From: a virus
Taxonomy: Duplodnaviria > Caudoviricetes
IMG/VR virus record: IMGVR_UViG_2660238492_000006
Location: 1-64,000 of that record
Reading direction: 5' to 3' (one strand)
Length of the DNA stretch: 64,000 nt
In this document: positions 10,770-63,646 of the stretch, in pieces
Position numbering within the stretch: the stretch's first letter is position 1
Layout: every line of letters begins with the position of its first letter
Position numbers and translations under genes: made by a program
The notes under the pieces: model-generated
Databases searched by the model: none
Told to the model about the DNA's origin: nothing
Seen by the model: only the letters and a program-made list of their open reading frames with translations

Positions 10770-11953
10770 GCATTAAATGGAAAATTTCCTGTACTTACAC
10801 TGCTTGATATTGATAGAATCTTTTTTGTAGAATCATAATATATTCCACTTACAGAATTTGAAGATTGAAAAGGATAAAAGCTTCCTCCTACTTTTGTTAT
10901 ACATACATATGGATATTGTGAATATGATGAATTAGGTTGATCTACTGTTATTGATCCAGCATTAAAATTTAGAAATATTTCATCTCTAGTACCATTAGTA
11001 TGATTTATAACTCCTTCCAAGAAATTTTTTCCACCCATACCTTGAATACTTATATTAGCTATTTTAGAAACTAAACTAGCCAAAGCTTCGTTTCCACTAG
11101 CACTTACACCTTTGCTATTAAGATTACTAGCTGTTGTATTCTTATCTGTTTGTATTCTATTTGCTATCTCTGCATGTGTATTGTTTCCTGTAATATTTCC
11201 TACCTTGCCAGCAATAGCATTTTTACCATTACTGGCAAATGTAAAAAGTTCTTGTATTCCTGATTGTACATTCTTTGCAGACATACCATTAATTGTTGCA
11301 AGATTAACCTTAGTTGCACTCAAGTCTATATTAGCTACTGTATTTTTTAAATCCTCTAACTCTGTCTTACTTGCCTTATTGTTCGCAATATCTTTCGATT
11401 GTTCAGCAAGCTCCGATAATTTTTTATCTATACTTTTATTAATTTCCTTCTGATTACCACCACTTATTACTATAAATGTTGTATTAGTGTTTTTGACTCC
11501 ATAATCAAAAGTTAGATTACTTAATTCAACTGTAACATTAGCTGCATTTCCAATAGCAGCTTCTATATCATAACTCCAACTGAATGGCCCACTAGTTGCA
11601 GGTGCATAATAATCACCATATTTACCTGCTGTTCCGTAAGCATAGAGTACCTCTCCATCGTCAGGATCTTCAGCAAAAAGACCAATCTCACATATATATG
11701 TTGCTTCTATCATAGAACTATTGTCTATTTTCCCTGAAATTACAGCAATTTTCTGCTCTGTATTTGGAGTTATGCTTTGAATGCCAACATCAAATTTTGG
11801 CTCTATTAATGCTAATAATGTTGCTGGATTTCTTGAATCAATATCCCCTGATCCTACCATCATTTTAGTAAATTTTATTTCTTGTCCTGCTTGAGCTTTA
11901 ACATATAGTAGCTGACCTTTTGTTGTTAAAGTCATATTATTAAATATTGCCAT
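10757..11953 (-). CDS. tail fibre (phage A N-terminal anchor plus shared C-terminus)
   Basis: N-terminal collar-like EIGLFAEDPD..EVLYAY; C-half shared with 50904..52031 from KDIANN onward. Confidence 0.85.
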   Translation of the reverse strand: MAIFNNMTLTTKGQLLYVKAQAGQEIKFTKMMVGSGDIDSRNPATLLALIEPKFDVGIQSITPNTEQKIAVISGKIDNSSMIEATYICEIGLFAEDPDDGEVLYAYGTAGKYGDYYAPATSGPFSWSYDIEAAIGNAANVTVELSNLTFDYGVKNTNTTFIVISGGNQKEINKSIDKKLSELAEQSKDIANNKASKTELEDLKNTVANIDLSATKVNLATINGMSAKNVQSGIQELFTFASNGKNAIAGKVGNITGNNTHAEIANRIQTDKNTTASNLNSKGVSASGNEALASLVSKIANISIQGMGGKNFLEGVINHTNGTRDEIFLNFNAGSITVDQPNSSYSQYPYVCITKVGGSFYPFQSSNSVSGIYYDSTKKILSISSSVSTGNFPFNAWGE

Positions 11954-12614: not shown

Positions 12615-12624
12615 AAAATCACCT

Positions 12625-31753: not shown

Positions 31754-32455
31754 CTATATACTCTGATTTTTTGTTTCATTAATTATTTCTTTTTTATATT
31801 TATAATAAGTGTTTCTTGCAAGGCCTATTAACTTCATTGCTTCAACATCTTTAAGAGTACCTCCAAAATCTTTACTGTATTTTTTTATTTGTTCCTTTGC
31901 TGAAATACTCTTTTTAGTAGTTAATTTAATACCCACTTGCTGCCCTATTTGTTTTCCATTAAGTCTTGCTGTTTCTATTCCTTCTTTTGTTCTTTGCTGT
32001 AAGTCCTTAACTTCCTTTTCAGATTGATTAAAAGCTATCTTTATTTGCTCTTTTGCTAGTGCTAATAAAAAATTATTAATGCCTTCAATAATAAAGTCAA
32101 CGTTCGTTCCTGTCATTTCAAAATTATTTGTAAGTGCTTTCTTATATGTCTCTGTATTTATATGTTGCTCTTTTATGAATACCAACTCAACACCTTTATT
32201 AAATAATTCCTCATATAGTTTAAATCCCTCCTCTGCATTTCTACTCATTCTACTTACAGAATCAAATACAATAGTATCACCTTTAGAAATATTACCTAAT
32301 AACTTTTTAAACTCTTTACGACCTTGAACTTTAGTTCCAGTAAATATTTCATTAATTATTATTGCACTTGGATATAATGCACTAATATTTCTATGTTGTC
32401 TTTCAATACTTTGTTTATTAGTTGATATTCTACAGTAACCATATATTTTATTCAT
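31754..32455 (-). CDS. serine recombinase (resolvase family)
   Basis: YGYCRIST..Q...RQ, GDTIVFDSVSRMSR, RT.EG...A, C-terminal HTH. Confidence 0.9.
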   Translation of the reverse strand: MNKIYGYCRISTNKQSIERQHRNISALYPSAIIINEIFTGTKVQGRKEFKKLLGNISKGDTIVFDSVSRMSRNAEEGFKLYEELFNKGVELVFIKEQHINTETYKKALTNNFEMTGTNVDFIIEGINNFLLALAKEQIKIAFNQSEKEVKDLQQRTKEGIETARLNGKQIGQQVGIKLTTKKSISAKEQIKKYSKDFGGTLKDVEAMKLIGLARNTYYKYKKEIINETKNQSI

Positions 32456-32471
32456 ACTCTACACCTCATAT

Positions 32472-32586
32472 ATTAATAGTATTAAATTTAACGACCGTTT
32501 TATTTGATACTACTAATATATAAGATTTTTAATCTAATGTCAATGACTTTTAATACTTTTCTAAATAACGTCACTTTTAATACTAA
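32472..32586. promoter_or_regulatory. putative res site upstream of the resolvase
   Basis: imperfect IR TAGTATTAAAT...ATTTGATACTA plus ACTTTTAATACT repeated twice. Confidence 0.45.
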
Positions 32587-32842
32587 ATATTTATACACAC
32601 ATATATATTTAATTGAGTTGAGTTGTTCTTGAGTTGTTTTTATGCCTAAAATAATTTTAAAAAACTACTCAAATCTATTAATGAAGCTAAACCTATTGAT
32701 TTTACTAGCTTTGAATGTATTTTCCCATTTTTCTTACAATAAGTAATAACATGGAGAATTACTGATACTATTTTTAAGATACATATAATAGTAAGAATTT
32801 TTTATTTATATACTAAATAAGTACCATTTTATTTTTTACCGA

Positions 32843-33499
32843 TTATAAATCTTTATCAGCTATTTTACCAGCATCCTCTAACATAATATCTTTAAGTCCC
32901 AAATAACGTTTTGTTTCTTCTATAGATTGGTGATTTAAAGCAACTCTAACTTTTTCTATATTATGATTAGAGTTCTCATAAATTGTAGTAGCATAAGTCT
33001 TTCTAGGACTATGCCCACTTATATGTTTTAATCCAATCTTTTCACCAACATCTTTTAATATAGCACTATATGATTTTTGACTTATATATTCATCTCCCTC
33101 ACCTTTATTAGATGGAAATGCAAATTCTTTTCTTTTTTTATTTTTAATATATTCTTCTAAATATTTTTTTAATGAAGAACCTATAATAGCTTTTCTTTTA
33201 TCAGGCTTCTTTCTGTTAGGATGTTCTGCTAAACTACTTTGCCATTGTTTAAATTGCTTACTCTCCTGGATTAGAAAAAATCCTTCACTTAGTGCATCAT
33301 CAATTTCTCCAATTGTAAGTCCAACAAGATCACCTAATCTATATCCTGTAGCCCTAGCTAATAAAAATAATGTTATATTTCTGTCAGCATACTTTTTACT
33401 ATGCTCTATTAATGATTCTTTAAATCTCTTATATTTATTATCTGGTATAGGTAAGGCAGTTCCTTTTTCCCAGTTCCTTTTCTTATCTTCATCCACCAT
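32843..33499 (-). CDS. small tyrosine recombinase (catalytic domain only)
   Basis: TGYR.GD, HSPRKTYA, LNHQS, TKRYLG: the R-H-R-H-Y residues are present. Confidence 0.9.
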   Translation of the reverse strand: MVDEDKKRNWEKGTALPIPDNKYKRFKESLIEHSKKYADRNITLFLLARATGYRLGDLVGLTIGEIDDALSEGFFLIQESKQFKQWQSSLAEHPNRKKPDKRKAIIGSSLKKYLEEYIKNKKRKEFAFPSNKGEGDEYISQKSYSAILKDVGEKIGLKHISGHSPRKTYATTIYENSNHNIEKVRVALNHQSIEETKRYLGLKDIMLEDAGKIADKDL

Positions 33500-33720
33500 T
33501 AATTCACCTGCCTTATATATCCATTCATTCTTTTGTAATAATTACTTTTCATACAATCCTTAGCATTATTAGTTGAAAATTCTTTCTTAAATGACTTACA
33601 ACCACAATGAGCACATGATAAGTATTTTCTATTTTTTATAGTATCTTCAACTTCTTCTTTCAAAAGAATAGTAGTTTTTTTACATCTTTTACATATTAAA
33701 ATAATATAAATACTTTCCAT
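33499..33720 (-). CDS. zinc-ribbon protein
   Basis: CKRC...CAHCGC; translationally coupled to the recombinase. Confidence 0.7.
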   Translation of the reverse strand: MESIYIILICKRCKKTTILLKEEVEDTIKNRKYLSCAHCGCKSFKKEFSTNNAKDCMKSNYYKRMNGYIRQVN

Positions 33721-33771
33721 CTACTCACCTTCTTCCCATAAAAATAACCAGTAAAACTACTGGTTTAAAAT

Positions 33772-34179
33772 TTACATTATAACAACATCATTTTCTTTTC
33801 TATAATCACTTTTAAGTATATTTTTATTGATTTTATCTGCTGCATACTCATTTGTTAATCTTCTAGGTGTATCAAAACTTACTGTAACATCTTTGTTAAG
33901 AACTATATTGCCGTTCTTTTTATTAGTTTTATATATGGATCTATTTCTTTTAACAAAATCTTTATCACTCATATAATTTTTAGATTCTTGCCTTGTTATT
34001 CTATCAACTTCTTTTTTCCTTATTTTTTCAGCTTCATTGGATTTTCTAAATTCTTTTAGATTTCTATGTATGCATTGTCTTACTGTACTAGGCTTACATT
34101 TTAATGTTCTTGCTATTTGAGAAGAATTATAACCTTCAAGATACTTTTCTTTTACTTTTTCTATATCTAACATATACAT
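33772..34179 (-). CDS. HTH DNA-binding protein
   Basis: YLEGYNSSQIARTLKCKPSTVRQCI. Confidence 0.7.
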   Translation of the reverse strand: MYMLDIEKVKEKYLEGYNSSQIARTLKCKPSTVRQCIHRNLKEFRKSNEAEKIRKKEVDRITRQESKNYMSDKDFVKRNRSIYKTNKKNGNIVLNKDVTVSFDTPRRLTNEYAADKINKNILKSDYRKENDVVIM

Positions 34180-34311
34180 ACCTCCTAAAAATGGATATAG
34201 TTATTCCATACCAAAAGTGTGACATTTTTTTATTTTAAATAAGACATTTGTTGCAAATTTTTATCTTATTACTTATTTATATTAATTATAAAAAAAATAT
34301 CGTGCTTGTAC

Positions 34312-34352
34312 CACGACACAAACACGACATTTTTATGACATTTTCACGACAT
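34312..34352 (-). promoter_or_regulatory. phased direct repeats, candidate late-activator operator
   Basis: (C/T)GACA at 34314, 34325, 34336 and 34347, an 11-bp period. Confidence 0.6.
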
Positions 34353-34553
34353 TTTTAAATTTTTTTCTATTCTTTGCAGATGTCTTGGACTTATTCCAGC
34401 TATATTAGCTGCTCTTTCTTGTGTATAACCTTTAATTAATCTCAAATACTTTACCTTATCAATATTTCTATTCAACTTATCAACATATCTTTTATCTTCT
34501 TCTTCATCTGCAATAGAAACATCAATATCTTCCAATATTACTGTTTTAGTCAT
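34344..34553 (-). CDS. HTH regulator (candidate late-gene activator)
   Basis: LRLIKGYTQERAANIAGISPRHLQRIE. Confidence 0.75.
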   Translation of the reverse strand: MTKTVILEDIDVSIADEEEDKRYVDKLNRNIDKVKYLRLIKGYTQERAANIAGISPRHLQRIEKNLKMS

Positions 34554-34734
34554 TTATTATCCTCCTCTTTATTCTTTAACATCTATTTCAGTTTTATAAG
34601 GTTTTAGGATATTCCTAATTATTTAAAAAATTGGATTGTGGCCACAAATCCAATGCTTGCTATTCTTATAATTCAGCAGGATTCTTAAGGACTTTATTCC
34701 TTGAGCAAGTATGGATTTAATTTTAAATCCAATG

Positions 34735-34786
34735 CTTGCTATACTTGCTATACTTGCTATACTTGCTATACTTGCTATACTTGATA
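34735..34786. repeat. 9-bp tandem repeat (CTTGCTATA)x5 plus a partial copy
   Basis: read directly from the sequence. Confidence 0.95.
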
Positions 34787-34924
34787 AAATTATTAGTAAA
34801 TACAAAAATACTTGATGCAATATTCCTGATTTACTAGTATGACGAAGTAACCTTAAATAAAAAATACTGCACTATCAATTGAATAGTGCAGTATAAAACT
34901 TATTAAAATCTATTTTCTAAAAAC

Positions 34925-35494
34925 TTATGAATTAATAAAACCATCTATAAATTCATTCCAAGGTAATAATGGATATTCTCTCATTAGCAATGCTATCACT
35001 TCGATATTAGCTTTGCATTTACCACTTTTCATGTCTGAAATTATTTGTCTACTCTTATTGATTTTCCTTGCAATTTCGGACTGATTGTCTTTTATAAGCA
35101 TAAGTATATCATTGAATGTAAAAGGTTCATTTTCGTATAAGTTTAAAATCTTATTAATAATTCTTGCGGGTACATTAGCTTGATAGTAATCTAATACTTC
35201 ATCAAATAAACTCAATATATTTTTGTATTCTTCTTCAGTAACTTTTCTTGTAACTGTTATGCTGCATACGTCCATATATTGTTTTCTACCAACACTAGGA
35301 AAATATATCCCTATATCTGTTCTATCAAATTCAAAAGTATTACATTTAATATTTTTTCTTTCTAAAAATTCAACTAAATCCTTTCTATTAAAATAAGTTT
35401 CAACAAGATCTTGACTTGGTACTCCCACTATAGTAAAACTAGTAATCTTACCTTCTTCAATTAATTTAAACAACATTTTCTTTTTTAATAACAT
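34925..35494 (-). CDS. hypothetical protein with C-terminal HTH
   Basis: NQSEIARKINKSRQIISDMKSG. Confidence 0.65.
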   Translation of the reverse strand: MLLKKKMLFKLIEEGKITSFTIVGVPSQDLVETYFNRKDLVEFLERKNIKCNTFEFDRTDIGIYFPSVGRKQYMDVCSITVTRKVTEEEYKNILSLFDEVLDYYQANVPARIINKILNLYENEPFTFNDILMLIKDNQSEIARKINKSRQIISDMKSGKCKANIEVIALLMREYPLLPWNEFIDGFINS

Positions 35495-35591
35495 TTTAAA
35501 AACAACTCCTTTATGATATAATTTATTTGAATAATTTATAAAATATTTTGTTTTAGGAGAGTATAGAGTGCTTATCTATACTCTCTATTTA

Positions 35592-35825
35592 TTAATTAAG
35601 CTTTAATATTGCTGTATCAAGACCACCTCTTGCACCTCTTATTAATGTTGCGTTTGTATGCAATTCTTTAACTGATTCTATGAAATTTTCAATGGTTCTA
35701 TTAGTTACTCTTCTTGGAGAATTAGCAAAGCTTCTATATGTTGCTCCTAAACTTTTAACTTCGCCTTCTTTTAATAAAATTTCATAAACAGCTTTTTGAT
35801 TTGAACCTTTAATCATTTTTACCAC
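35592..35825 (-). CDS. hypothetical protein
   Basis: AAGGAG RBS; own upstream region and downstream hairpin. Confidence 0.55.
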   Translation of the reverse strand: MVKMIKGSNQKAVYEILLKEGEVKSLGATYRSFANSPRRVTNRTIENFIESVKELHTNATLIRGARGGLDTAILKLN

Positions 35826-35994
35826 TCCTTAATTTGTTTTAATTTATCTTATAAATATATTGTACGATATTTTCTTACACATTGCAATAGTTTTGTAGGA
35901 AATTTTCTTACAAATATTTCGACAAAAAAGGATTAATAATAAACTTTATACTACACTATTCAATTTTCAAAGAACAATTTTTTATTTAAGTTAC

Positions 35995-36021
35995 TACATC
36001 ATATATACATATTGCGAACTA
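35995..36021. other. dyad recombination-like site TACATCATA-TATACA-TATTGCGAA
   Basis: abuts the TAG of 36019..36312. Confidence 0.6.
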
Positions 36022-36312
36022 ACTTAGTTTCAATTTTGTACCATATTCCTTATTGTGTATGTCTACTAATTTTTTAACTTTTTCTATATAATCAACAAAA
36101 TCATTTTTATCTTTTATAGCTTCATATTTTACTTTTGTCCCTTGCTTATTTGTCTTATATATTTTTTTAACCTTAAATCCATCTTTGCATTTTTCTATAT
36201 ATAACCCTAATATCACTAAATCATAATCTTGCTTTTTATTTTCCTTAAATTCTAAATTAATTTTTGGATATGTTTCTGTAAATCCTAAAACGGATACTGC
36301 AGCATTATTCAT
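36019..36312 (-). CDS. phage early hypothetical protein
   Basis: ORF with RBS. Confidence 0.6.
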   Translation of the reverse strand: MNNAAVSVLGFTETYPKINLEFKENKKQDYDLVILGLYIEKCKDGFKVKKIYKTNKQGTKVKYEAIKDKNDFVDYIEKVKKLVDIHNKEYGTKLKLS

Positions 36313-36321
36313 TGCTCTACC

Positions 36322-36531
36322 TCACTTTATAATTTTTATTCCATACTTTATATAATCCTCTGCCAGTACGAAATGTTTACATTCTGTTTTTCTATTAAGT
36401 CTTTTGCTATTATCAAAACTATAGTAATAACACTCTTCACAGTTAAAACAATCTTCTATACTACCTTTTCTGCTATATAAACAATCTACATTGTTGGAAC
36501 ATTTATTGCATATGCAATTACATACAGGCAT
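36322..36531 (-). CDS. Cys-rich small protein
   Basis: CNCICNKC, CFNCEEC. Confidence 0.6.
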   Translation of the reverse strand: MPVCNCICNKCSNNVDCLYSRKGSIEDCFNCEECYYYSFDNSKRLNRKTECKHFVLAEDYIKYGIKIIK

Positions 36532-36566
36532 GTCTTACATCCTTTCTCTGACTATATTGTGTATTG

Positions 36567-37292
36567 TTAATTATCTATATCAAAATAAGTTTCTATATCA
36601 TCATCACCCTCAATATCAATTATTATTGGAGTTTTATTGTAATAAATATTTGTGATTAATGACTCTATTTCCGTCATATTTCCTAATTTAAATGTATTTT
36701 CTAATCGTTTATCCCCTATATACACAGTGTTCATGCTTCCTATTTTTTTATCATCTCTATCCGGATATACTGTAAACTCAATATAGTTTTCATCATCTCT
36801 GTAATATGATCTTTCAGGTTTTTCTCTTGCCATTTTATAAGTTATCCATCCATATTCAGACTCTTCTATATCAACCCAGAAGTTTTCTAATGAATACTTG
36901 TCTTCTTCATCAGTACTTTCATTCATATAATCTCTATATTTTTCAAATATCTCTGAAAGCTTTATATTTTCTCTTTTTATAACCAATATGTCATTAAATG
37001 TTTTTTGAATTTTTTCTGCAACATCTTTCCTACATACTTCTTCAGTAATCATTTTTATTTTTTCTGCTATAAAACCGTTATAGCCAGTAAATCCTATTTC
37101 ACTTACTACTTCTGAAACCTGCTTTTCTACTTTATCTTCTATTTGATGTTTTAAACTATAACTATCTAGTGCCCCTTCAATTCCTTTAATAATAGCTTTT
37201 TCAATATTTTCCTCTAGTACTTTTTCGATTGTATTATTTTCTTCCATTTCCTTTAACTTATTGTTTACAATTGCATTTATATCTATATTCAT
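36567..37292 (-). CDS. phage early hypothetical protein
   Basis: 241-aa ORF with GAGGT RBS. Confidence 0.7.
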   Translation of the reverse strand: MNIDINAIVNNKLKEMEENNTIEKVLEENIEKAIIKGIEGALDSYSLKHQIEDKVEKQVSEVVSEIGFTGYNGFIAEKIKMITEEVCRKDVAEKIQKTFNDILVIKRENIKLSEIFEKYRDYMNESTDEEDKYSLENFWVDIEESEYGWITYKMAREKPERSYYRDDENYIEFTVYPDRDDKKIGSMNTVYIGDKRLENTFKLGNMTEIESLITNIYYNKTPIIIDIEGDDDIETYFDIDN

Positions 37293-37330
37293 AATTCTCT
37301 ACCTCACTTTATTTTATTTTTTAATTTTTC

Positions 37331-37354
37331 TTCGTCATATCTGACTATTATTTT
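37331..37354. other. dyad site TTCGTCATA-TCTGAC-TATTATTTT
   Basis: overlaps the stop of 37348..37614. Confidence 0.5.
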
Positions 37355-37614
37355 TCATATTTCTTTCCACAAAACGGACAATATGCATAACACATATTAA
37401 CTTTTTCCTTCTTATGCTTAATCTCACCTTTTCTATTTTTATAGTCATACTCTATTACCATAAGTGAATATAATTGGCTTTGGCATCCTGCTTCTGTAAA
37501 CATCAACGCTGCATTTTCTAAAGATACTTTGTTTACTTTTTCTATGTCTTCTCTTTTTTGAAATTTTTCTTCTATTCCTTTTTTTACTGATTCTATACAA
37601 TCACATTTGCTCAT
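37348..37614 (-). CDS. zinc-finger phage protein
   Basis: CDC...YCPFCG. Confidence 0.7.
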   Translation of the reverse strand: MSKCDCIESVKKGIEEKFQKREDIEKVNKVSLENAALMFTEAGCQSQLYSLMVIEYDYKNRKGEIKHKKEKVNMCYAYCPFCGKKYEK

Positions 37615-37865
37615 TGATCAATCCCACTTTCCATAATTTCTTTCTTAAAATTTTCTAACTTTTCAATTTCTGCCTGGTGCTCTTTGATTTTTATATCAGT
37701 TATCTTTAAAGCCATAAATTTATTTGAATTAGAATAAGTTAATGAATAATTACCAAAGGAGCTGTATATATGCTGCTTTGATACTCCAAATTCTTTGGCT
37801 ATCATTTCATAACTATATCCAGTTAAATCTTTTAACTTTTTAAATAACTCGTTTATTCTTGCCAT
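37611..37865 (-). CDS. HTH protein
   Basis: YSYEMIAKEFGVSKQHIY. Confidence 0.7.
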   Translation of the reverse strand: MARINELFKKLKDLTGYSYEMIAKEFGVSKQHIYSSFGNYSLTYSNSNKFMALKITDIKIKEHQAEIEKLENFKKEIMESGIDQ

Positions 37866-37938
37866 TTTCTTATTTCCTCCTTTTGTTTTATTCTGTCAAC
37901 TCATTCTCTTATTTCTTTGTTTTAAGTCAATTATTTAC

Positions 37939-37965
37939 TACGCAATATCTGACTATTGTGTACTA
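37939..37965. other. dyad site TACGCAATA-TCTGAC-TATTGTGTA
   Basis: near-perfect inverted arms; abuts the TAG of 37963..38277. Confidence 0.65.
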
Positions 37966-40864: not shown

Positions 40865-40900
40865 CAAAACACTTCCTTTCCGTTTTTGTATTATAAATAC

Positions 40901-41002
40901 ATAATATACCATAGTTTTTGTATTGTCAAACCATTTTGTCGTATTTTTATTGTATTTTTAATACACAATTGTATTGACAATACAATTGTGTATATATATA
41001 AT
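40901..41002. promoter_or_regulatory. divergent lysis/lysogeny promoters with a 33-bp palindrome
   Basis: + TTGACA-17-TATAAT (40974-41002); - TTGACA at 40929-40924; IR ATACACAATTGTATTG-A-CAATACAATTGTGTAT. Confidence 0.75.
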
Positions 41003-42300: not shown

Positions 42301-44595
42301 TTAGTGTGGTAATTTAGTAATAAATTTTGCATATCCATCATTACATTTTATAAGATTTAAACTATAGTATCTTTTTAGGTTTAATAGATCATCTAATTCG
42401 AAAGGTTCTAATTCTTGTTTTAACTCTAAATAATTATCTTTATTGCATCCTGCAATAAGCATATAGCTTGTATTAGCACTTTTTAATTCTGGTCTTATAT
42501 ATTTTATTTGCTCTAAACTATGACAGCTTATAATTGATTTTGCTGTTTTTTTAGCAATTTGATTAAGTTTAATTTTTAAAAATGTTTGGCAACAAGGGAC
42601 TTGATATAATTCATCAAAAAACAGATTTACTTTTACTCTATCTTCTTCTTTTAATATGCTATGCCTTTGTTGTAATGCTCCCCATATCTTATTAATCCAA
42701 TAAGTACAGTATACATCTTTTTCTTCATCTGTACTAAACATTGTTTCTTTCATTTTTAAACAAATAAGTTGATTCTTTTGCATTTCTTGTACTAGATTTA
42801 TATTATTGCTGCAATCTTTTTTTAACATTAATTCCATATAAACATTACTTTTAATAACATCCAATCTATTTAAAATTCCTTGAATATATGAAACCTTAGT
42901 ACCTACAACTTGTGGTTCTTTGGTTTTACACCAATCATCTAATTCTTGCAATGCTAATACATATTCTTCTAAGTTACTTCTTTGAGTAGATTGTATTTTA
43001 TCTATAAATTGCCTTCTAATTTTATAATCTTCTAATACATTAAATACATCTTTAATACTTCCGTTACTTATAAAGACAACTAAACTACTTGCTTTTAAAT
43101 ATCTATTCATACGTGGCTCTAATTCATTATCTATATTAATAGAATTAATAAAATTAACTAATTGTGCTGTTTGCATTTTAGCACTTTTATATACTTCAAA
43201 AGTATTATTACTATCTGCAAATATTTCATTAAAGCCTAATCCTTGTAATTCATCAAAATTTGAGCAATCAATATTTAATATTTTCTTTTTATCAATTGCA
43301 TAACTAACATCATTGGAAAACTCACACTCTCCACAAAAGTCAAATATTATTGAACACTCATTATTATCTATAGAATCTTTTACTAAATGTTTTAATAATG
43401 TAGTTTTTCCGCTTCTTGTAGGAGCAATAGCACATAATGTTAAATTCCTAAAATCCTTATCTGTACTTAAATATGCTTTTGAACTTTTCCCCTTACATAT
43501 ATTTGAACCTATACACATAGTTCCTTCCAACAACTCTACAGGAATTGGAGTTTCTGTTGTTTCTATATGATTTATTTTAAAATCTTTTAGTAGGTGATCT
43601 GCTGGTATCTGAATAAAATTTTGACATTCATCACTAGAGCACATATTTATATCTATTTTATAATCATAATCTTCTATGTTTATTGTTTTTTTAACTTTTT
43701 TATATATTAACTCATTATCCTCAGATAAGACATTATAAGATTGACATATACTTAAAGCGTTATTCTCTTGTCTAGTTTTATCAATGCTGTCTGAAATAAC
43801 TGCAATCTGAGTATTAATTATAGTAGCTTCTTTCTTTTTCTTTGTATTTTTAGATGTATCATTTTGTTGTCCTATAATAGACATAACATTTTTATACAAG
43901 CTTTCATTATCTTTATTAGTGTTTCCTCCTGTAAAGTCTTGTAATACTTCTAAAATGCAATCTAGTGTAGTTAAAACAGTACCTAAAATAGCCTTTAATA
44001 TATATTCAAAACTTGTTATTTTCTTTTCAAGTGGTTTATTATTCTTAACCTTATTTTCCATTTCTTCATAGCGTTCTTTCCAACCAATTTGGCGTATAGG
44101 CATAAAATTATAAGCTATTCTTAATCTATCTGTATCTTGCATTATATCCATTACATTTAAAATAGAATTTAATGGTTCATTATTTGTTTTATTTACATTC
44201 AGACTAAGCGCATCATCTTTTTTATAGTTTAATGAATAAGTAGTAGAATTTACTGAAAATGTTGGTATATCTTCTACTTCTTTTATAGTAGCTTTTGACC
44301 ATATTTCACTAATTTTTTCTAAAATTATAGATTTATAGATAACTGGAACTAAAAAATAGAAATTAGCATTATTCTTTTCTATATCAATAATATAAGATAT
44401 TTTAAAGTTAGTTTCTATAAATATCTTTTTTTGTTCCTTATGAACACGTTTATTAATGCTTTTATATGTGTGTGAAATAGCTTTGGCAATATTGCTTGAA
44501 TTATAATTCCTAATAGATCTGTGTGGTACTATTTGAATATATGTGTATGTTGGATTGATTAATTGAAAATAATTACTTAATTTTATAGCTTCCAT
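42301..44595 (-). CDS. large FtsK/HerA/VirB4-like P-loop ATPase
   Basis: Walker A APTRSGKT, IFDFCGE, Walker B LFFDE. Confidence 0.75.
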   Translation of the reverse strand: MEAIKLSNYFQLINPTYTYIQIVPHRSIRNYNSSNIAKAISHTYKSINKRVHKEQKKIFIETNFKISYIIDIEKNNANFYFLVPVIYKSIILEKISEIWSKATIKEVEDIPTFSVNSTTYSLNYKKDDALSLNVNKTNNEPLNSILNVMDIMQDTDRLRIAYNFMPIRQIGWKERYEEMENKVKNNKPLEKKITSFEYILKAILGTVLTTLDCILEVLQDFTGGNTNKDNESLYKNVMSIIGQQNDTSKNTKKKKEATIINTQIAVISDSIDKTRQENNALSICQSYNVLSEDNELIYKKVKKTINIEDYDYKIDINMCSSDECQNFIQIPADHLLKDFKINHIETTETPIPVELLEGTMCIGSNICKGKSSKAYLSTDKDFRNLTLCAIAPTRSGKTTLLKHLVKDSIDNNECSIIFDFCGECEFSNDVSYAIDKKKILNIDCSNFDELQGLGFNEIFADSNNTFEVYKSAKMQTAQLVNFINSINIDNELEPRMNRYLKASSLVVFISNGSIKDVFNVLEDYKIRRQFIDKIQSTQRSNLEEYVLALQELDDWCKTKEPQVVGTKVSYIQGILNRLDVIKSNVYMELMLKKDCSNNINLVQEMQKNQLICLKMKETMFSTDEEKDVYCTYWINKIWGALQQRHSILKEEDRVKVNLFFDELYQVPCCQTFLKIKLNQIAKKTAKSIISCHSLEQIKYIRPELKSANTSYMLIAGCNKDNYLELKQELEPFELDDLLNLKRYYSLNLIKCNDGYAKFITKLPH

Positions 44596-47036: not shown

Positions 47037-47789
47037 TTATTTCATTCTTTTTATGATTTCGTAATACAGATCTTTATAAGGTTCTGCATACTTTTTATTG
47101 TAATCTTGTATTGTTATATTTGATGCAACAGCTTCTTTATATTTTACACTATTATTTATAATTGTTTTGAATACATCTTCTGTAAGTTCTTCTGTTATAA
47201 CTTCATTTATTTGTTTTGAAAATATAGTCTTTTTATCAAAATTATTTCTTAATATTCCTAATAATTTTATATCTTCATTTACACGATTTTCTTTTATTGT
47301 CGTAACAAGATTATCAACTAAATTCAATCCTTGAAGTGCTGATGTAGAATTATCTATTACCTCTATGTAATAATTACTCATACACATAGCATTAGTTGTA
47401 CATAAACCTAAAAATGGTGAATTGTCTATTATTATTACATCATAATTATTCTTAAATTTTTCAAATTTATTTTTTAATATGGTTTCTCTTGTTATCTTAT
47501 TATGAAGTTCTGATTCTAAGACAGCACTTTCAATCGTGTTTGGTATTAAATCTATCATTTCATTGTATTGTGCTATACAATCCTTAAAATTCACTTTAGA
47601 ATTAGAATACAAATCATATAAATTATATTCAGCTTCAACATTTAAAATTTGACTTAAATTTGATTGGCTATCATTATCTATTAATAAAACTTTATGTCCT
47701 TGTTTTGCGAATTGTCCTGCTAAATTTACACAAGTAGTAGTCTTACCAACTCCTCCTTTAACATTTATTATTGATATAATATCGCACAT
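47037..47789 (-). CDS. parA: ParA/Soj partition ATPase
   Basis: KGGVGKTT, LLIDND.Q.N, YDVIIIDNSP. Confidence 0.9.
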   Translation of the reverse strand: MCDIISIINVKGGVGKTTTCVNLAGQFAKQGHKVLLIDNDSQSNLSQILNVEAEYNLYDLYSNSKVNFKDCIAQYNEMIDLIPNTIESAVLESELHNKITRETILKNKFEKFKNNYDVIIIDNSPFLGLCTTNAMCMSNYYIEVIDNSTSALQGLNLVDNLVTTIKENRVNEDIKLLGILRNNFDKKTIFSKQINEVITEELTEDVFKTIINNSVKYKEAVASNITIQDYNKKYAEPYKDLYYEIIKRMK

Positions 47790-50324: not shown

Positions 50325-50423
50325 TATTAATCCTTCTCTCTATAAAATTAAGCAATAAAAAAACACCTTAATGGTGCTAATCTATTGCCTGATATTTAAT
50401 TTATTCTATATTCCTATTGCGAA

Positions 50424-50618
50424 CTAAATTACAGGTGTAATTAATACTGTAAATTCTGAATATTGCTCTGTAGTAATCTTATTTCCTGCAAGGAAAATAT
50501 CCATAGTTTCTTGAATACTCTTAAACTCCTTAACTTCATTTTTAAACTCTGCATTAATTCTGTTCTTTAAAATTCTTCCTAATAATTCTTGCATTTTTGT
50601 CATTTTACATTCCTCCAT
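50424..50618 (-). CDS. small tail-fibre-associated protein
   Basis: identical to 10277..10471. Confidence 0.7.
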   Translation of the reverse strand: MEECKMTKMQELLGRILKNRINAEFKNEVKEFKSIQETMDIFLAGNKITTEQYSEFTVLITPVI

Positions 50619-50916
50619 TTTCTACAACTTTATTTTTTTCTGTTTCTAAAATAGTTTTTTCTACATTAGTAACAGTAGTTTCATCTGTATTATCTAAGTA
50701 TGTTTTTATATCATCTACTCTTGTATTTTTATCTCTTACAATTACTTTACTGTTTTCTGTATCTACAGAAACTACTTCTTTACCGTTCTCTATATCTGCA
50801 ACTAAACAATTATAATTATCTTCTATACTAGTTCCAGACGTAGAAAAAATAATTTTTCCCAAAGAATTATATATTACTAAAGTTTTCATTTTTTCTATTC
50901 CTCCTACTCTCCCCAC
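50605..50916 (-). CDS. tail-fibre-associated/chaperone protein
   Basis: one residue differs from 10458..10769. Confidence 0.7.
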   Translation of the reverse strand: MGRVGGIEKMKTLVIYNSLGKIIFSTSGTSIEDNYNCLVADIENGKEVVSVDTENSKVIVRDKNTRVDDIKTYLDNTDETTVTNVEKTILETEKNKVVENGGM

Positions 50917-52031
50917 GCATTAAATGGAAAATTTCCTGTACTTACACTGCTTGATATTGATAGAATCTTTTTTGTAGAATCATAATATATTCCACTTACA
51001 GAATTTGAAGATTGAAAAGGATAAAAGCTTCCTCCTACTTTTGTTATACATACATATGGATATTGTGAATATGATGAATTAGGTTGATCTACTGTTATTG
51101 ATCCAGCATTAAAATTTAGAAATATTTCATCTCTAGTACCATTAGTATGATTTATAACTCCTTCCAAGAAATTTTTTCCACCCATACCTTGAATACTTAT
51201 ATTAGCTATTTTAGAAACTAAACTAGCCAAAGCTTCGTTTCCACTAGCACTTACACCTTTGCTATTAAGATTACTAGCTGTTGTATTCTTATCTGTTTGT
51301 ATTCTATTGGCTATCTCTGCATGTGTATTACTTCCTGTAACATTTCCAACCTTGCCAGCAATAGCATTCTTACCATTACTGGCAAATGTAAAAAGTTCCT
51401 GCATTCCAGCCTGTACATTCTTTGCAGACATACCATTAATTGTAGCAAGATTAACCTTACTTGCACTCAAGTCTATATTAGCTACTGTATTTTTTAAATC
51501 CTCTAACTCTGTCTTACTTGCCTTATTGTTCGCAATATCTTTCAATTGGGCGGTTATATCTGTTCTTAATTGTTCTACTTCACCTTTTTTAGCAAAGATA
51601 ATAGTTGGATCTACTTTAAGTTCTACTGTATCTGTATTGACTACACATAAAATTAAATCTAGTAATAATTCTTTAGTAGAACCATCTGCTATTACAGGCT
51701 TATAGGTTTCAGCACATTTACAAATTCCTATAAGATTATTTTCATCATCAAAAGCACCATATTCTCTTATAGTAAATCCTCCAACTGTACTTGGAATCAT
51801 AACTTCTATGTGAATCCAGTTTGGATTTTTTTCATCAACTGTAACATGATTTATATTTCCTTCCCAAACAACATTTTTTAAATCTGTTTGGCCTTCTGTT
51901 GGCTCGTAATATGCTCCTCCTCCATCTCCTATCTTCATTTTTGCAAAGTTTATTTTAGTACCTAAACCTATAGAATTAGCAACTTTAGCTTTTCCTATAT
52001 TGGTTAATATGCTATAAAATTTTTCTGCCAC
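50904..52031 (-). CDS. tail fibre (DUF3751-like N-terminus plus shared C-terminus)
   Basis: LT.IGKAK.AN, GDGGG, GGF.IRE.G.FD, ETYKP...GS. Confidence 0.85.
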   Translation of the reverse strand: MAEKFYSILTNIGKAKVANSIGLGTKINFAKMKIGDGGGAYYEPTEGQTDLKNVVWEGNINHVTVDEKNPNWIHIEVMIPSTVGGFTIREYGAFDDENNLIGICKCAETYKPVIADGSTKELLLDLILCVVNTDTVELKVDPTIIFAKKGEVEQLRTDITAQLKDIANNKASKTELEDLKNTVANIDLSASKVNLATINGMSAKNVQAGMQELFTFASNGKNAIAGKVGNVTGSNTHAEIANRIQTDKNTTASNLNSKGVSASGNEALASLVSKIANISIQGMGGKNFLEGVINHTNGTRDEIFLNFNAGSITVDQPNSSYSQYPYVCITKVGGSFYPFQSSNSVSGIYYDSTKKILSISSSVSTGNFPFNAWGE

Positions 52032-52648
52032 TATAATCCCTCCTCTACTGGATATGTTCTAATGTTTTCGAAACTTTTAGGTTGCATAAGTGGAATTTTA
52101 ACATCTACCTTATTAATTAAATCGTTAGGAGTCCATGGAAATGTTTTTATTGTTTCTCCTTGAAGTCCAAACATTACTACTCTAAAATCTGTTTCTGTAA
52201 TTGCTCTTAAAATGTAATTAACACCCAAGTGTGACGGTTTTACTTCTCTTATAGAATCATATAAAGTATCAAAGCCGCTTGGAAATCCACTATGACTAAG
52301 TAAATCTATTTCAAAATAATACTCTGGATTATGTTCTATAACCTCAACATCTTCAACAAAGCTTTTACATATATTCTTAATCGCTTCTATGGTAGTTGTT
52401 CCTTGACCTTTTAATTTTGCTAAAATCCTACTTCTTCTAATGGCATAACTATAATTTATATTATTCTGTATTCCTAATTCCTTTTCCCAAGTATCTAATC
52501 CCCAAGTTGCAGTTTCAATAAAACATTGATTAATTAAATTTTGTATATCTTCATTAGTAGAATCTACTTGCTTTTGCTGTTCTTCATAGACTTTAGATAA
52601 AATCTTATCACCACTCAAAAAAGATGGTACATAATCTTTAAGTTGCAT
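52031..52648 (-). CDS. DUF2313/XkdU-like baseplate protein
   Basis: TATWGLD.WEKELGI, RR.RI.AKL.G, KPSHL. Confidence 0.85.
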   Translation of the reverse strand: MQLKDYVPSFLSGDKILSKVYEEQQKQVDSTNEDIQNLINQCFIETATWGLDTWEKELGIQNNINYSYAIRRSRILAKLKGQGTTTIEAIKNICKSFVEDVEVIEHNPEYYFEIDLLSHSGFPSGFDTLYDSIREVKPSHLGVNYILRAITETDFRVVMFGLQGETIKTFPWTPNDLINKVDVKIPLMQPKSFENIRTYPVEEGL

Positions 52649-53708
52649 TACATACCACCTCTCCTAAAACAGCTATTTGATTGTCATTTACAGTTACATT
52701 AGTAGCGCTACTATTAATGGTTAAATTATTATAATCTTCAACACCATCTGAACTAAGTATTAAAGCTCCTATTTTAGCAATACTTATATAATTAATATTT
52801 AAAGCTACTTTCTTTAAATACTCTTCTATAGAACTTTTTATATTTTCCTTAATCTTATCTAATGTAATTTCTTTAGAATTATAAATTAAACTTACAGATA
52901 TATTTAAAAGTAATTCTTCTACAGAAACTACAGTTACAGTTGCTCCTATAGGTCTATTTTCTTCAATATGCTTTGCTACCTTATCTATCAGCTCTTTACT
53001 GGCAGCTCTTTTATTACTATTTGAAATAACACATTTTACAGTACCATTACCATTCCAAAGTGGATATACTTTTGCACTTCCGCACCCCTCTGTTTCTAAA
53101 CACCATTGTTTATAGTGGTAGTCATTCCCGCTAGTGGCTGGAGTCTGTACCTTTAGTAAATATCTATTATATAAATCTTCATCACTCTCAATGTCATAAC
53201 CATTAGTTACAGCTTCTTTATTGGTAATACTAGTTATCCCATTATATTTTATTGGCAAATAATTTATTTCATTAACTTTTGCATTGTATTTGCTACCAGG
53301 CTTTTCTGCTCTTATAATAACTTCTCCATATCCATCTTGATCTAATACTAAATCATTTTGAGTTATATATAATCTGTTATCTTTAATTCCTGCAATACTA
53401 TTTGCCTTTAAATTTGCATTTGGAGAACCATTTACATCAATTTTAGTACTGGCATAAGTTGGTTGCTTTCTTTCTATTCCAACTTCTTTTATTCTCATTT
53501 CTAGATAATTAGAATATCCACTTTCTAAAGCAGAACTAGCAAATACTTTTTTTGTAGCTTCATCTAAATCTAATAAAGCAGTTGATAATTTAATACATAC
53601 TGGCATACAAGAGTTATAAATCAAACTTCCTTCATTTGTGTCAGTTTCTGTATATCCTAAGAACATTTCTTCATATATATCCTCAGCGCTTCTATAATAA
53701 GCCATCAA
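52638..53708 (-). CDS. baseplate J (XkdT-like)
   Basis: PATSGN..HY..W, PLWNG.GTVK, RPIGA.VTV. Confidence 0.9.
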   Translation of the reverse strand: MMAYYRSAEDIYEEMFLGYTETDTNEGSLIYNSCMPVCIKLSTALLDLDEATKKVFASSALESGYSNYLEMRIKEVGIERKQPTYASTKIDVNGSPNANLKANSIAGIKDNRLYITQNDLVLDQDGYGEVIIRAEKPGSKYNAKVNEINYLPIKYNGITSITNKEAVTNGYDIESDEDLYNRYLLKVQTPATSGNDYHYKQWCLETEGCGSAKVYPLWNGNGTVKCVISNSNKRAASKELIDKVAKHIEENRPIGATVTVVSVEELLLNISVSLIYNSKEITLDKIKENIKSSIEEYLKKVALNINYISIAKIGALILSSDGVEDYNNLTINSSATNVTVNDNQIAVLGEVVCNAT

Positions 53709-53716
53709 ATCGCCTC

Positions 53717-54199
53717 CTAATCTATATCTACATAAAAGCTATCATCTTTATTTCCATAGATACTTTCTATAGTATAATTTATCTTATAACAGCTTTTTTC
53801 CAATTCAGTTGAAAAATTATTTATTCCAGTTACATAAATTCCATCCACTAAACAATCATGAAGCATTTGATATGCATAAATATCACCATTACTTTTACTT
53901 TTTCCTATAAGTTTATGAAGTTGACTTCCAAAATTCTTACTATAAATTAAGTAACCGTCTCCTGTAAAAGGATCTAATTTCTTGGTGTATATCGTTCTCC
54001 ATGCCTGTACTATCACTGCATCTAAACCTTCTACGATAATTGCTTTTTTATTTTCATCAAGTAATATTTCTCCTGTATCAAGATTTATTGCATAATCCTT
54101 TAATAATTTAATTTCTTTTTTCTTTGTTCTATTCATTGCTTTATTACTATAAAAATCTTCCGGGAAAAAACTCATTATCCAATCACCCCTAACACACAA
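53717..54199 (-). CDS. DUF2634/XkdS-like protein
   Basis: IVEG.DA, YS..FGS.L..LIG; synteny. Confidence 0.75.
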   Translation of the reverse strand: MCVRGDWIMSFFPEDFYSNKAMNRTKKKEIKLLKDYAINLDTGEILLDENKKAIIVEGLDAVIVQAWRTIYTKKLDPFTGDGYLIYSKNFGSQLHKLIGKSKSNGDIYAYQMLHDCLVDGIYVTGINNFSTELEKSCYKINYTIESIYGNKDDSFYVDID

Positions 54200-54528
54200 T
54201 ATTTTTGATATGTTTTTCCACTCTCATCATATCCAATTCCATAGCAAGCAACATTTGAACCAAGTTTTAACTTTGAATGGTGCTGAATAATTGAAATTGT
54301 ATGACTATGTTCATTATTTATACTAGTTTTTATATTTACCTCTTCATCCCATGCCAGCAAATAAGGATTTATATATAAATTGTTTCTATATAAAGGAAGA
54401 CCCTCCAGTTCTATAACTAAAGGGTCTAATGAAGTTACTTTTCCAACTTCAAAAGGTTCATCAATCATATTCTTTTTTTGTTGATTATCTATAACATTCC
54501 AAAATTCATCAAATGATGAAGCCATCAT
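54175..54528 (-). CDS. DUF2577/XkdR-like protein
   Basis: GKV.S.DPL.I; HSH motif. Confidence 0.7.
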   Translation of the reverse strand: MMASSFDEFWNVIDNQQKKNMIDEPFEVGKVTSLDPLVIELEGLPLYRNNLYINPYLLAWDEEVNIKTSINNEHSHTISIIQHHSKLKLGSNVACYGIGYDESGKTYQKYCVLGVIG

Positions 54529-54539
54529 ATCATCCCCTT

Positions 54540-56806: not shown

Positions 56807-56836
56807 CTAGGATTTCCTAAGTGTTTAAAAATTTTT

Positions 56837-57121: not shown

Positions 57122-57178
57122 GTATATCCCCCTAAACAGTATATACTATAATTGTATATTATTAGAAAGTTTTGTCAA

Positions 57179-57892: not shown

Positions 57893-57900
57893 AAAATCAC

Positions 57901-59853: not shown

Positions 59854-59865
59854 ATACCTCCCTCC

Positions 59866-60084: not shown

Positions 60085-60086
60085 TA

Positions 60087-60485: not shown

Positions 60486-60538
60486 GTATAATCATCCTTT
60501 CAATTTAAAATTAAAAGGTAGAGCATTAAAATTTTACT

Positions 60539-61000: not shown

Positions 61001-61015
61001 TCAATTCACTCCTTT

Positions 61016-63635: not shown

Positions 63636-63646
63636 AGGTGTATCAC

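Follow-up and report, generated by a model that had tools for sequence, protein, structure and literature searches.

A short polar junction element at gene-unit boundaries and homology breakpoints of a Clostridium botulinum plasmid-prophage and related elements

Judged by sequence comparison, the stretches flagged between 34823 and 37965 of the window (the whole 64,000-nucleotide stretch of DNA that was analyzed) are copies of a short conserved polar junction element, most of them one-armed hybrids. On the transcribed strand, a stop codon comes first, followed by a 9-bp left arm (consensus TTCGCAATA, variant TACACAATA), a 6-bp core whose last base is nearly always A, and a 9-bp right arm (consensus TATTGCGAA, with TATTACGAA and TATGACGAA as variants). 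Each arm is an inverted copy of the other, with conservation in sequence and not in pairing alone, and the junction sites share one orientation, aligned with transcription. We found the element at the 3' ends of accessory early genes and also at the constant/variable boundary inside tail-fiber genes, both in the C. botulinum plasmid-prophage studied here and in other AT-rich Clostridium phages and plasmids. As the original prediction of a cassette array had proposed, the sites part gene units and mark where relatives differ in gene content, with homology blocks that stop at the 6-bp spacer. Phage genomes are mosaic, and a defined sequence can seldom be assigned to their joints; in Clostridium phage-plasmids, a short element with an explicit sequence predicts the exchange points of accessory genes and tail-fiber ends.

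All of the site sequences initially reported were present in the DNA as quoted, namely 37939 TACGCAATA-TCTGAC-TATTGTGTA, 37331 TTCGTCATA-TCTGAC-TATTATTTT, 35995 TACATCATA-TATACA-TATTGCGAA, 34823 TTCCTGATT-TACTAG-TATGACGAA and a half-site at 36547-36563. Arms do abut TAG stops at 36019, 37963 and 10277, which are the stops of minus-strand ORFs. The TCTGAC spacer recurs in two sites that form direct repeats at a distance of 608 bp and enclose the ORFs 37611-37865 and 37348-37614; the identity of TATTGCGAACTA at 36010 and 10268 was likewise confirmed. The five junctions, together with the unit inserted between the last two, read as follows.

37936..37965, minus strand: site A, the only full site in the window; TAG stop, TACACAATA, core GTCAGA, TATTGCGTA
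37325..37350, minus strand: site B, a hybrid; TAA stop, core GTCAGA, right arm TATGACGAA, no recognizable left arm
36545..36569, minus strand: site C, a hybrid; TAA, CAA, left arm TACACAATA, TA, GTCAGA, without a right arm
35990..36021, minus strand: site D; TAG stop, TTCGCAATA, core TGTATA, weak right arm TATGATGTA, GTAAC
34852..35990, minus strand: two-gene unit (moron) between D and E, with ORFs of 77 aa and 189 aa (weak HTH)
34823..34851, minus strand: site E, which directly follows the terminator of the two-gene unit; TTCGTCATA, CTAGTA, AATCAGGAA

Site A agrees with the consensus arms at 15/18 positions, and its arms match at 10/12 when extended to a 12-6-12 layout. Site D reaches 14/18 (left arm 9/9, right arm 5/9), with D-type junctions that have full arms present in the related loci L207, L208 and L340, and sites B and E score below 13/18. 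In site C, GTCAGA directly adjoins the ribosome-binding site of a 69-aa ORF. The left arm of site E together with TTTAAGGTTAC is an inverted copy of the right arm of site D together with GTAACTTAAA (inverted repeats I1 and I16). D and E flank the inserted unit yet differ in core, TGTATA versus CTAGTA. This moron unit has its own promoter (TTGCAA-17-TACAAT at 35887-35859), a terminator (34894-34864), 54-nt terminal inverted repeats and, at its upstream end, the conserved box TCTTTGAAAATTGAATA; it shares 74-79% identity with a counterpart in large C. botulinum plasmids. Both arms are present in the window at only one of the five flagged junctions (A), which does not support a regular array. The stretch 34823-37965 would rather represent an archive of past exchange events, in which A is the one full site and the other four are hybrids.

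To characterize the distribution of the element, we counted its left-arm word relative to ORF ends. T[AT]C[AG]CAAT lies 0-4 nt past the stop at 6/159 ORF stops of the contig, where 0.089 are expected. The left arm had been defined from the window only and was then counted in five related loci, where it occupies the same position at 6/139 ORF stops (0.117 expected; 3/35, 2/16, 1/38, 0/17 and 0/33 by locus). TATTGYGWA has 11 matches against a mean of 3.66, a count that none of 100 shuffles reached; these matches include three pairs that are copies within a 1.2-kb repeat. On the minus strand, ATAGTCAGA occurs three times, each time intergenic and all inside 1.4 kb. Full 9-6-9 sites with both arms were identified in G006/L340, L208, G002/L336 and loci of other Clostridium genomes, and G002 carries two sites with the identical core CAAAGA, in direct order, around a 1.28-kb unit. 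Megablast and blastn with the region gave no match in the phage collection, tblastn with the 241-aa protein recovered only distant Burkholderia phages there, and a protein scan of genome contigs with the same protein did not find a relative. Among the papers listed in searches of open-access text we found no description of the element, and the literal-sequence matches listed there were primers or otherwise unrelated. Exact 15-16-nt patterns matched 117 and 83 stretches of viral contigs, mostly unrelated, and these scans were uninformative because only L163, which is the G001 contig, is relevant. Such unrelated matches, about 100 in the viral collection, together with a dyad symmetry at background level in the four sites, are what unrelated ATA-N6-TAT coincidences in AT-rich DNA would give, but chance is contradicted by the post-stop enrichment in the contig and in independent relatives, by the coincidence with breakpoints and by an exactly bounded tail-fiber block, and we find it scarcely credible.

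The sites had originally been described as arm-N6-arm dyads. The sequences are there, but three of the four are no more symmetric than chance would give, and symmetry as good as that of the fourth is not rare. Arm complementarity at 37939, 37331, 35995 and 34823 is 8, 4, 5 and 6 of 9, respectively; within the window, 9-6-9 dyads of 8/9 occur at 29 of 63,977 positions (12-31 in 10 simulations), and 4/9 is reached at 15,778 positions. Site A (37939-37962), at 8/9, is the sole good dyad among the four. Folded as RNA, it yields -7.4 kcal/mol (z -4.0), and the full sites range from -7.4 to -9.5 kcal/mol (z -4 to -5). Neither B (z -2.3, from a different small hairpin) nor C (z +0.9) nor D (z -0.2) forms the element hairpin. 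The stem-loop of the element is weak and has no T run after it, and true terminators adjoin it. A 3'-cistron hairpin that serves as a processing site, a stabilizer or the target of an RNA-binding protein would explain the folding of full sites, their position directly after the stop and their constant polarity relative to transcription. Most window copies, however, are one-armed and unfolded, the arm changes in hybrids are mostly non-compensatory, and Rfam held no relevant family (2 weak matches, E > 0.5, both elsewhere), which makes an RNA element very unlikely.

Next, we compared the homology blocks among six related sequences. Of 35 block ends, 9 lie at most 3 nt from a core edge, against a null mean of 0.41 and a maximum of 4 in 2000 randomizations, with the ends being partly dependent (two per block; L208 and G006 are near-identical). 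At site A, homology to L209 stops at 37948, one core edge, and homology to record 6 of run X1 stops at 37953, the other core edge. At site B, homology to G001 begins exactly at GTCAGA (37345), and homology to L207 and L208 is gone directly past GTCAGA. At site C, the window and a run X5 contig have the 241-aa gene and the left arm in common and diverge at 36554 into TGTAGA-TCGGACGAA. In these alignments the upstream gene keeps its left arm and the downstream gene its right arm, and homologous and unrelated sequence join at either core edge. Around the GTCAGA core, the left flank took four different forms and the right flank five, as a common overlap region would lead one to expect. Against pCBI, which is 99.95% identical, the window displays no rearrangement at any site. 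Sequencing runs contained at most 0.27 of the sampled stretch words per run, and in the four runs examined the contig pieces and joints derive from relatives and do not represent excision products. A joint from 34905 to 35946 was discarded, as its shorter side comprises 24 letters inside an inverted repeat.

The tail-fiber region provides a further exchanged unit. A 1,135-bp block, 10262-11396, is near-identical in the two phages of the contig (14 mismatches, of which one falls in 10262-11161), and the cores GGAATA and GAAAGA mark its exact ends; past the upper core, the two phages are unrelated. The bounding sites are the following.

11382..11405, minus strand: in-gene site within the tail-fiber ORF 10757-11953; TGAACAATC, core GAAAGA, perfect right arm TATTGCGAA
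10253..10279, minus strand: post-stop site after a 64-aa ORF; TAG, TTCGCAATA, core GGAATA, GAGGATAAA

The in-gene site, copied at 51529-51552, forms the upper block edge (first mismatch 11397), and the post-stop site, copied at 50400-50426, forms the lower one (first mismatch 10261, the first base beyond the core). G006 has a non-homologous tail-fiber gene with the core GAAAGA and the same right arm as 11382..11405, and its non-homologous tail-fiber cassette lies between the two site types that bound 10262-11396. Stop enrichment, breakpoints and this block support the idea that the sites are cassette boundaries.

The reading we prefer is a cassette-exchange crossover at the core by a tyrosine recombinase, to which, on sequence evidence, we give nearly an even chance. 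The 9-6-9 layout, which tyrosine-recombinase core sites share, was counted in its favor, as were the same-core pair of sites in G002 and the single PF00589 match in each site-bearing phage tested. Breakpoints at the core edges are indirect evidence that a cognate recombinase may bind the arms and cut where the overlap ends. The generic form of such a site (inverted arms, 6-8-bp overlap) is seen in A and in the full sites of L340, L208, L336 and other Clostridium, and not in B, C and E. Phages and plasmids resident in the same cell would exchange cassettes by crossing over at the element. A conservative site-specific recombinase would exchange the strands inside the 6-bp core; the likeliest is a tyrosine recombinase like the small catalytic-domain-only ones carried by these phages. 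Unlike cores at the two ends would keep a cassette from deleting itself, yet would permit a swap with a genome holding the same core pair. If exchange is enzyme-driven and core-specific, this would be a new kind of cassette system, and its matching-core rule could be tested on genomes alone. A broader claim is doubtful, namely a natural cassette-exchange system of Clostridium phages and phage-plasmids in which polar 9-6-9 sites with a few mutually incompatible cores, and small catalytic-domain-only tyrosine recombinases, swap accessory and host-range (tail-fiber) cassettes between co-resident elements with the same core pair and never excise them. If true, phages would have their first native cassette system, a third kind next to integrons and dif modules.

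Short-homology exchange is a close rival of the core crossover. It would involve a PeSL-like regulatory junction (attenuator, insulator or promoter region) that acts as a homology patch for ordinary or relaxed homologous recombination, with no dedicated recombinase; we hold this possible, with the balance against it. The PeSLs (promoter-early stem-loops) of T4-type phages comprise an upstream stop, a sigma-70-type promoter, a stem-loop terminator and a Shine-Dalgarno sequence with start codon (PMC2839356), likewise running from the upstream stop to the next Shine-Dalgarno/start, and are credited with indels and replacements among relatives (PMC2839356, PMC4122927). PeSLs and the element here are both short, conserved and intergenic, begin at the upstream stop and cluster among small early accessory genes; both lie at indel or replacement breakpoints of related phages, and some units have a promoter of their own. 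D-type junctions are followed by the conserved box TCTTTGAAAATTGAATAATAYGGTATT and then by promoters, and the units close with terminators. L208 holds an extra 342-nt unit relative to L207 between 15-nt direct repeats (stop, left arm and T), of which the upstream copy lacks a right arm and has a different core; this indel is what short-homology recombination would give, no full site being needed. Another boundary falls in the conserved ribosome-binding block AAAGTGAGGTAGAG, away from any site.

Of the PeSL features, stop abutment is seen here; promoters occur at D-type units only, and the stem-loop, weak, devoid of a T run and accompanied by real terminators, is missing in hybrids, with this hairpin impossible for B, C and D. 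The element here differs from a PeSL in its sequence-conserved 9-bp inverted arms, for which pairing alone does not account, its 6-bp core and its breakpoints at core edges, and in a weak hairpin without a terminator tail. It also lies within the coding sequence of tail fibers, an implausible place for a promoter or terminator, and the upper tail-fiber edge shares core and right arm only, ~15-16 nt, very short for homologous exchange. The hosts differ too, being Clostridium temperate phage-plasmids here and T4-like myoviruses there. Were the element a mere homology patch, it would bring temperate phages of Gram-positive anaerobes, beside T4-like phages, under the PeSL idea, and it would still be of practical use as a marker when cassette boundaries are annotated in these elements.

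A regulatory role as operators was also considered, either as extra immunity-repressor sites across the early operon or as sites for the small HTH protein downstream of A. Mycobacteriophage stoperators are dispersed repressor sites that carry the same word as the immunity operator. A 31-bp perfect palindrome at 40962-40992 has outer arms equal to the arm TACACAAT of site A, and two divergent promoters, TTGACA-17-TATAAT and TTGACA-17-TATTAT, overlap it. Downstream of A comes an 84-aa ORF whose HTH match is weak, and the sites are all in one orientation. However, G001 has the post-stop motif at four junctions together with a different immunity-region repeat, TTGAAC...GTTCAA, the half-site spacing of A is unlike that of the main palindrome, and TACACAAT occurs 9 times in the contig against ~8 expected from base composition (a hand count and an estimate). 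Operators would also leave the core breakpoints unexplained, and we consider them quite improbable. As the target of a 233-aa serine recombinase, a Chi-like site, a nuclease target or the box of a known regulator, the sites gave no fit.

A candidate enzyme is encoded in the operon.

32843..33499, minus strand: tyrosine recombinase of 218 aa, catalytic domain only; candidate enzyme for the sites

Its gene is co-directional with the operon, at the distal end, and translationally coupled to a 73-aa ORF (33499-33720) that has no Pfam or NCBIfam match. The protein matches PF00589 (E 9.4e-19) and phrog_216 (E 1e-39), and alignment to XerA places R54, H163, R166, H190 and Y199 (numbering counted by hand on the translation); it has the catalytic residues and is without a core-binding domain. 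The best NCBIfam scores are 63 bits for XerA-like (cut-off 220) and 38 bits for XerC (cut-off 335). The near-identical pCBI record carries a frameshift in the gene. In the window, the region around the gene, 32400-34800, contains no site of at least 13/18. A homologue of the 218-aa protein was found in only one of the related loci searched, and no single recombinase family accompanies the sites. PF00589 has exactly one match in each of five site-bearing phages tested, and in three of the five the open frame measures only 184-200 aa. G001 encodes a 335-aa enzyme of marginal similarity to the 218-aa protein (E 0.025), and G002 a start-less catalytic recombinase fragment. G002 and G006, two of those with 184-200-aa frames, also have a large serine recombinase, which is likely the integrase. 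The argument that the 218-aa recombinase lies far from any prophage end, and so is hardly the integrase, is beside the point, because the source element is a circular plasmid-prophage (PMC9202375). In the weighing of the core crossover, the points counted against it were the few two-armed window sites, the unlike cores of D and E, the L208 indel and the ribosome-binding-block boundary, and also the lack of a single recombinase family, the pCBI frameshift and the absence of rearrangement between window and pCBI.

Membership in the integron or pdif class was not supported, and the stretch is neither an integron nor an Xer/dif system. The suggested resemblance to dif, and with it the use of host Xer, found no support in a comparison with the host dif, here the predicted site of group II C. 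botulinum from Kono 2011 supplement file 2: the match is at background level, with sites A, B, D and E agreeing at 5-8/22 arm positions where the background mode is 6-8, and the predicted host dif has no match in the window at up to 3 mismatches. Sites occur in just 17/130 Clostridium genomes with up to 2 mismatches allowed and are thus not a one-per-chromosome site. The strict dyad pattern hit 111 stretches of genome contigs, mostly in unrelated taxa, so it is not a Clostridium dif. The dif modules of Acinetobacter plasmids are likewise small accessory modules bounded by arm-6 bp-arm (pdif) sites, and same-spacer sites exchange with crossovers centered on the sites (PMC13141974); those pdif sites copy the host dif, their XerC and XerD arms are distinct, and the unlike arms set the alternating C/D orientation of the modules. 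In contrast, the sites here have two like arms, are co-oriented, are often one-armed and are unlike the predicted host dif. With regard to a same-spacer rule, breakpoints fall at core edges and cores recur across phages, but D and E differ and one indel has unlike cores.

Integron attC sites are long imperfect inverted repeats conserved in structure rather than sequence, and attI and the cassette promoter adjoin a divergently transcribed integrase gene. The stretch has a likeness to integrons, including the parts of them borne by phages (PMC9892861), in that gene units each with a post-stop site, in one orientation, have a tyrosine recombinase gene nearby. We found no IntI-type integrase, no attC-like structure and no full site beside the recombinase gene, and the 218-aa protein passed no integron-integrase model. 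In contrast to the long, structure-conserved attC, the sites here measure 24-30 bp and have the sequence-conserved arms TTCGCAATA and TATTGCGAA; an attI/Pc arrangement is absent, and some units have their own promoter and terminator.

The tail-fiber switching segments of Mu and P1 use serine invertases. As in those phages, a site lies at the constant/variable border, and the variable end with small downstream genes forms the movable unit. Here, in contrast, the sites are in direct order, there is no alternative inverted segment, and the unit is replaced between genomes, not inverted. The site architecture also fits tyrosine recombinases better than serine recombinases.

On the transcribed strand, the junctions flagged between 34823 and 37965 align as a polar element, in which a stop codon is followed by a left arm, a 6-bp core and a right arm. 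All sequences quoted in the original prediction were found where it had placed them. The dyad character it emphasized proved weak, with 8, 4, 5 and 6 of 9 arm positions complementary in four sites; a score of 4/9 is reached by a quarter of all window positions, and at least 8/9 by 29 positions (12-31 in simulations), so symmetry is not the signal. The signal is instead a set of shared words at a fixed place. The sites in the window and the full forms in related phages and loci read as follows.

Site A, 37936..37965 (-): stop TAG, left arm TACACAATA, core GTCAGA, right arm TATTGCGTA
Site B, 37325..37350 (-): stop TAA, TA only without a left arm, core GTCAGA, right arm TATGACGAA
Site C, 36545..36569 (-): TAA, then CAA, left arm TACACAATA, then TA, core GTCAGA, no right arm, ribosome-binding site next
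Site D, 35990..36021 (-): stop TAG, left arm TTCGCAATA, core TGTATA, right arm TATGATGTA
Site E, 34823..34851 (-): no stop given, left arm TTCGTCATA, core CTAGTA, right arm AATCAGGAA
Full form in phage G006 and locus L207: TTCGCAATA-TGTAAA-TATTACGAA
Full form in locus L208: TTCGGAATA-TGTAGA-TATTACGAA
Full form in phage G002: TTCGCAATA-CAAAGA-TATTGCGAA

Similar full sites are present in loci of several other Clostridium genomes, and the last core base is A in all but one site of a compilation made by eye, in which many sites are homologous copies. There are three copies of the word ATAGTCAGA, all between genes and on the transcribed strand, and T[AT]C[AG]CAAT begins 0-4 nt after 6 of the 159 ORF stops in the contig (0.089 expected). 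Independent replication came from five related loci: with its definition taken solely from the window, the left arm lies after 6 of their 139 ORF stops, against an expected 0.117.

Comparison with relatives showed that the element marks joints. A 241-aa gene is common to the window and provirus G001 (96.7% identity), in a block that starts exactly at GTCAGA of site B and ends at the stop codon. Locus L209 matches the window over 3.3 kb up to the last core base of site A, beyond which both its right arm and its gene differ. A contig from run X1 covers the gene on the downstream side of A and ends at the opposite edge of this core. In L207 and L208 homology is lost directly after the core of site B, and a run X5 contig matches the window in the 241-aa gene and in the left arm of C, then reads TGTAGA-TCGGACGAA. 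When six related sequences were all compared with one another (blocks of at least 100 nt, at least 85% identical), 9 of 35 block ends lay at most 3 nt from a core edge (mean 0.41 and maximum 4 in 2000 trials of random placement), supporting the proposal that the sites are cassette boundaries, and a further 11 lay at most 17 nt away; not all 35 ends count as independent observations, as every block supplies two and L208 is nearly identical to G006.

The tail-fibre region displays the same pattern within a single contig. Positions 13731-51548 of the window are 99.95% identical to pCBI (Clostridium botulinum 202F, CP006904.1), a 40,142-bp circular plasmid described in its announcement as a putative phage-like plasmid (PMC9202375). 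The source record is one 89,678-nt virus contig with a second, related phage on either side of this element (window 1-13730 and 51548-64000), and the joins carry a 1.2-kb repeat (10204-11401 and 50352-51548, 98% identity). This arrangement, with the pCBI-like element set inside the second phage, is either a chimera of the assembly or a cointegrate that arose when the two crossed over within the tail-fibre cassette they have in common. The two phages share an almost identical block, 10262-11396, with 14 mismatches, only one of them in 10262-11161. The first mismatch below it, 10261, is the first base past the core of a post-stop site, TAG-TTCGCAATA-GGAATA, and the first above it, 11397, is the base preceding the core of an in-gene site within the tail-fibre ORF, GAAAGA-TATTGCGAA, past which the two tail-fibre genes are unrelated. 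The same two site types enclose a tail-fibre end in G006 without DNA similarity to that of the window, and tail-fibre-like ORFs of metagenomic phages also hold perfect copies of the dyad. Since the in-gene copies, as read by eye, encode K-D-I-A-N in one frame with identical codons, some protein-level constraint may add to conservation there.

How the joints are made is a separate matter, on which our preference, held tentatively and a little short of probable, is conservative site-specific exchange in the core. This is favoured by the 9-6-9 architecture, by joints at both core edges, by the occurrence of one core with many different arms, by the shortness of the sequence shared at the upper edge of the tail-fibre block, and because unlike cores flanking a cassette would block its self-deletion while permitting its swap. 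Exchange through short homology is a serious if doubtful possibility: a 342-nt indel between L207 and L208 has 15-nt direct repeats at its ends, no right arm and unlike cores, one boundary falls in the conserved ribosome-binding block AAAGTGAGGTAGAG, one-armed sites are numerous, and no one matching recombinase family accompanies the sites.

As the enzyme, the original prediction proposed the 218-aa tyrosine recombinase at 32843-33499 (-) or host Xer. The window gene for the 218-aa candidate is intact; its product matches PF00589 with R54, H163, R166, H190 and Y199 in place in an alignment to XerA, lacks a core-binding domain, and falls far short of the Xer cut-offs. In the pCBI copy (CP006904.1 19350-19766) an A run is one base short, so that the product ends after 138 aa, without the catalytic His, Arg and Tyr; this deletion may be a sequencing error. 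G006 has a homologue (29% identity) at the equivalent position, and G001 a 335-aa enzyme at that position. Five other phages with sites were examined, and each had exactly one PF00589 match (open frames of 200, 184, 342, 391 and 194 aa), accompanied in three of them by a large serine recombinase. A recombinase is usual in temperate phages, which makes this co-occurrence weak evidence. In G002 (locus L336, 5800-6374 and 7275-7976) a tyrosine recombinase gene is split or rearranged: the catalytic domain lies in an open frame without a start codon, and 0.9 kb further downstream, in a unit bounded by two sites sharing the core CAAAGA, a separate 233-aa ORF carries the N-terminal SAM-like domain alone.

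The likeness to dif did not hold. With the dif predicted for two group II strains (PMC3025954) the sites agree at 5-8 of 22 arm positions, which equals the background mode. With at most two mismatches a site was found in 17 of 130 Clostridium genomes (8 for a reversed control pattern), hence it is sporadic rather than one per chromosome, and we rejected a dif-like site. Separately, 33795-33822 (+), about 300 bp from the recombinase gene, is among the contig's five best matches to that predicted dif (17/22 arm positions, perfect left arm; five such matches is the chance number), and could be a plasmid dimer-resolution site. The set of sites is not an integron either, as neither an IntI-type integrase nor a full site beside the recombinase was found (none scoring at least 13 of 18 in 32400-34800). 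A conserved RNA hairpin was rejected, as only full sites fold and Rfam gave no relevant match for the site. Site A shares TACACAAT with a 31-bp perfect palindrome at 40962-40992, TACACAATTGTATTGACAATACAATTGTGTA, whose outer 8-mer equals an arm of A; the sites are probably not operators, because in G001 the junction motif coexists with a different operator repeat. The palindrome itself overlaps divergent promoters, TTGACA-17-TATAAT (plus) and TTGACA-17-TATTAT (minus), and is likely the immunity operator. The closest known systems are the PeSLs of T4-type phages (PMC2839356, PMC4122927), dif modules (PMC13141974) and integron parts in phages (PMC9892861); the element works like all three without showing the full set of defining features of any. 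Searches of open-access text found no description of it.

Sites D and E enclose a 1.13-kb unit (34852-35990) with its own promoter and terminator, 54-nt inverted repeats at its termini, and genes for a 77-aa protein and a 189-aa weak HTH protein, neither of which matched Pfam, NCBIfam or PADLOC. A unit 74-79% identical to it lies on large plasmids of C. botulinum group I strains, which keep the inner 48 nt of the terminal repeats and lack the site arms. D-type sites are followed on their downstream side by a conserved box, TCTTTGAAAATTGAATAATAYGGTATT, which recurs in G006 (in three consecutive units), in L208, in several Clostridium genomes and on the large plasmids, and which resembles one half of the terminator hairpin closing units of this kind. 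The three G006 units (locus L340, 7100-9900) stand in series, each running from a site and the box through a promoter-like stretch and one or two genes to a terminator, and the box there resembles the right half of the preceding unit's terminator hairpin.

The window genes run along the minus strand. Divergent HTH repressor genes with a perfect promoter pair (40900-41002) are followed by small early genes, by genes for a replisome organiser and for SSB, and by a series of small ORFs without known function. Two genes for HTH proteins and the 73-aa ORF come next, then the genes for the 218-aa tyrosine recombinase, for a 233-aa serine recombinase and for the terminase; ParA is encoded at 47037-47789. 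Upstream of the serine recombinase and terminase genes, a strong promoter, TTGACA-17-TATATT (32515-32620, -), is preceded by two direct repeats of AGTATTAAAAGT, likely an activator site for late transcription. At 34723-34794, within a doubtful 65-aa ORF, the 9-nt unit ATACTTGCT is repeated six times in tandem, and its copy number differs among relatives, since the run X1 contig skips 97 nt there. Adjoining the immunity region, a gene at 42301-44595 (-) encodes a 764-aa protein of phrog_5156 with a weak PADLOC match to mad8 (E 2.6e-06), which could be a defence gene.
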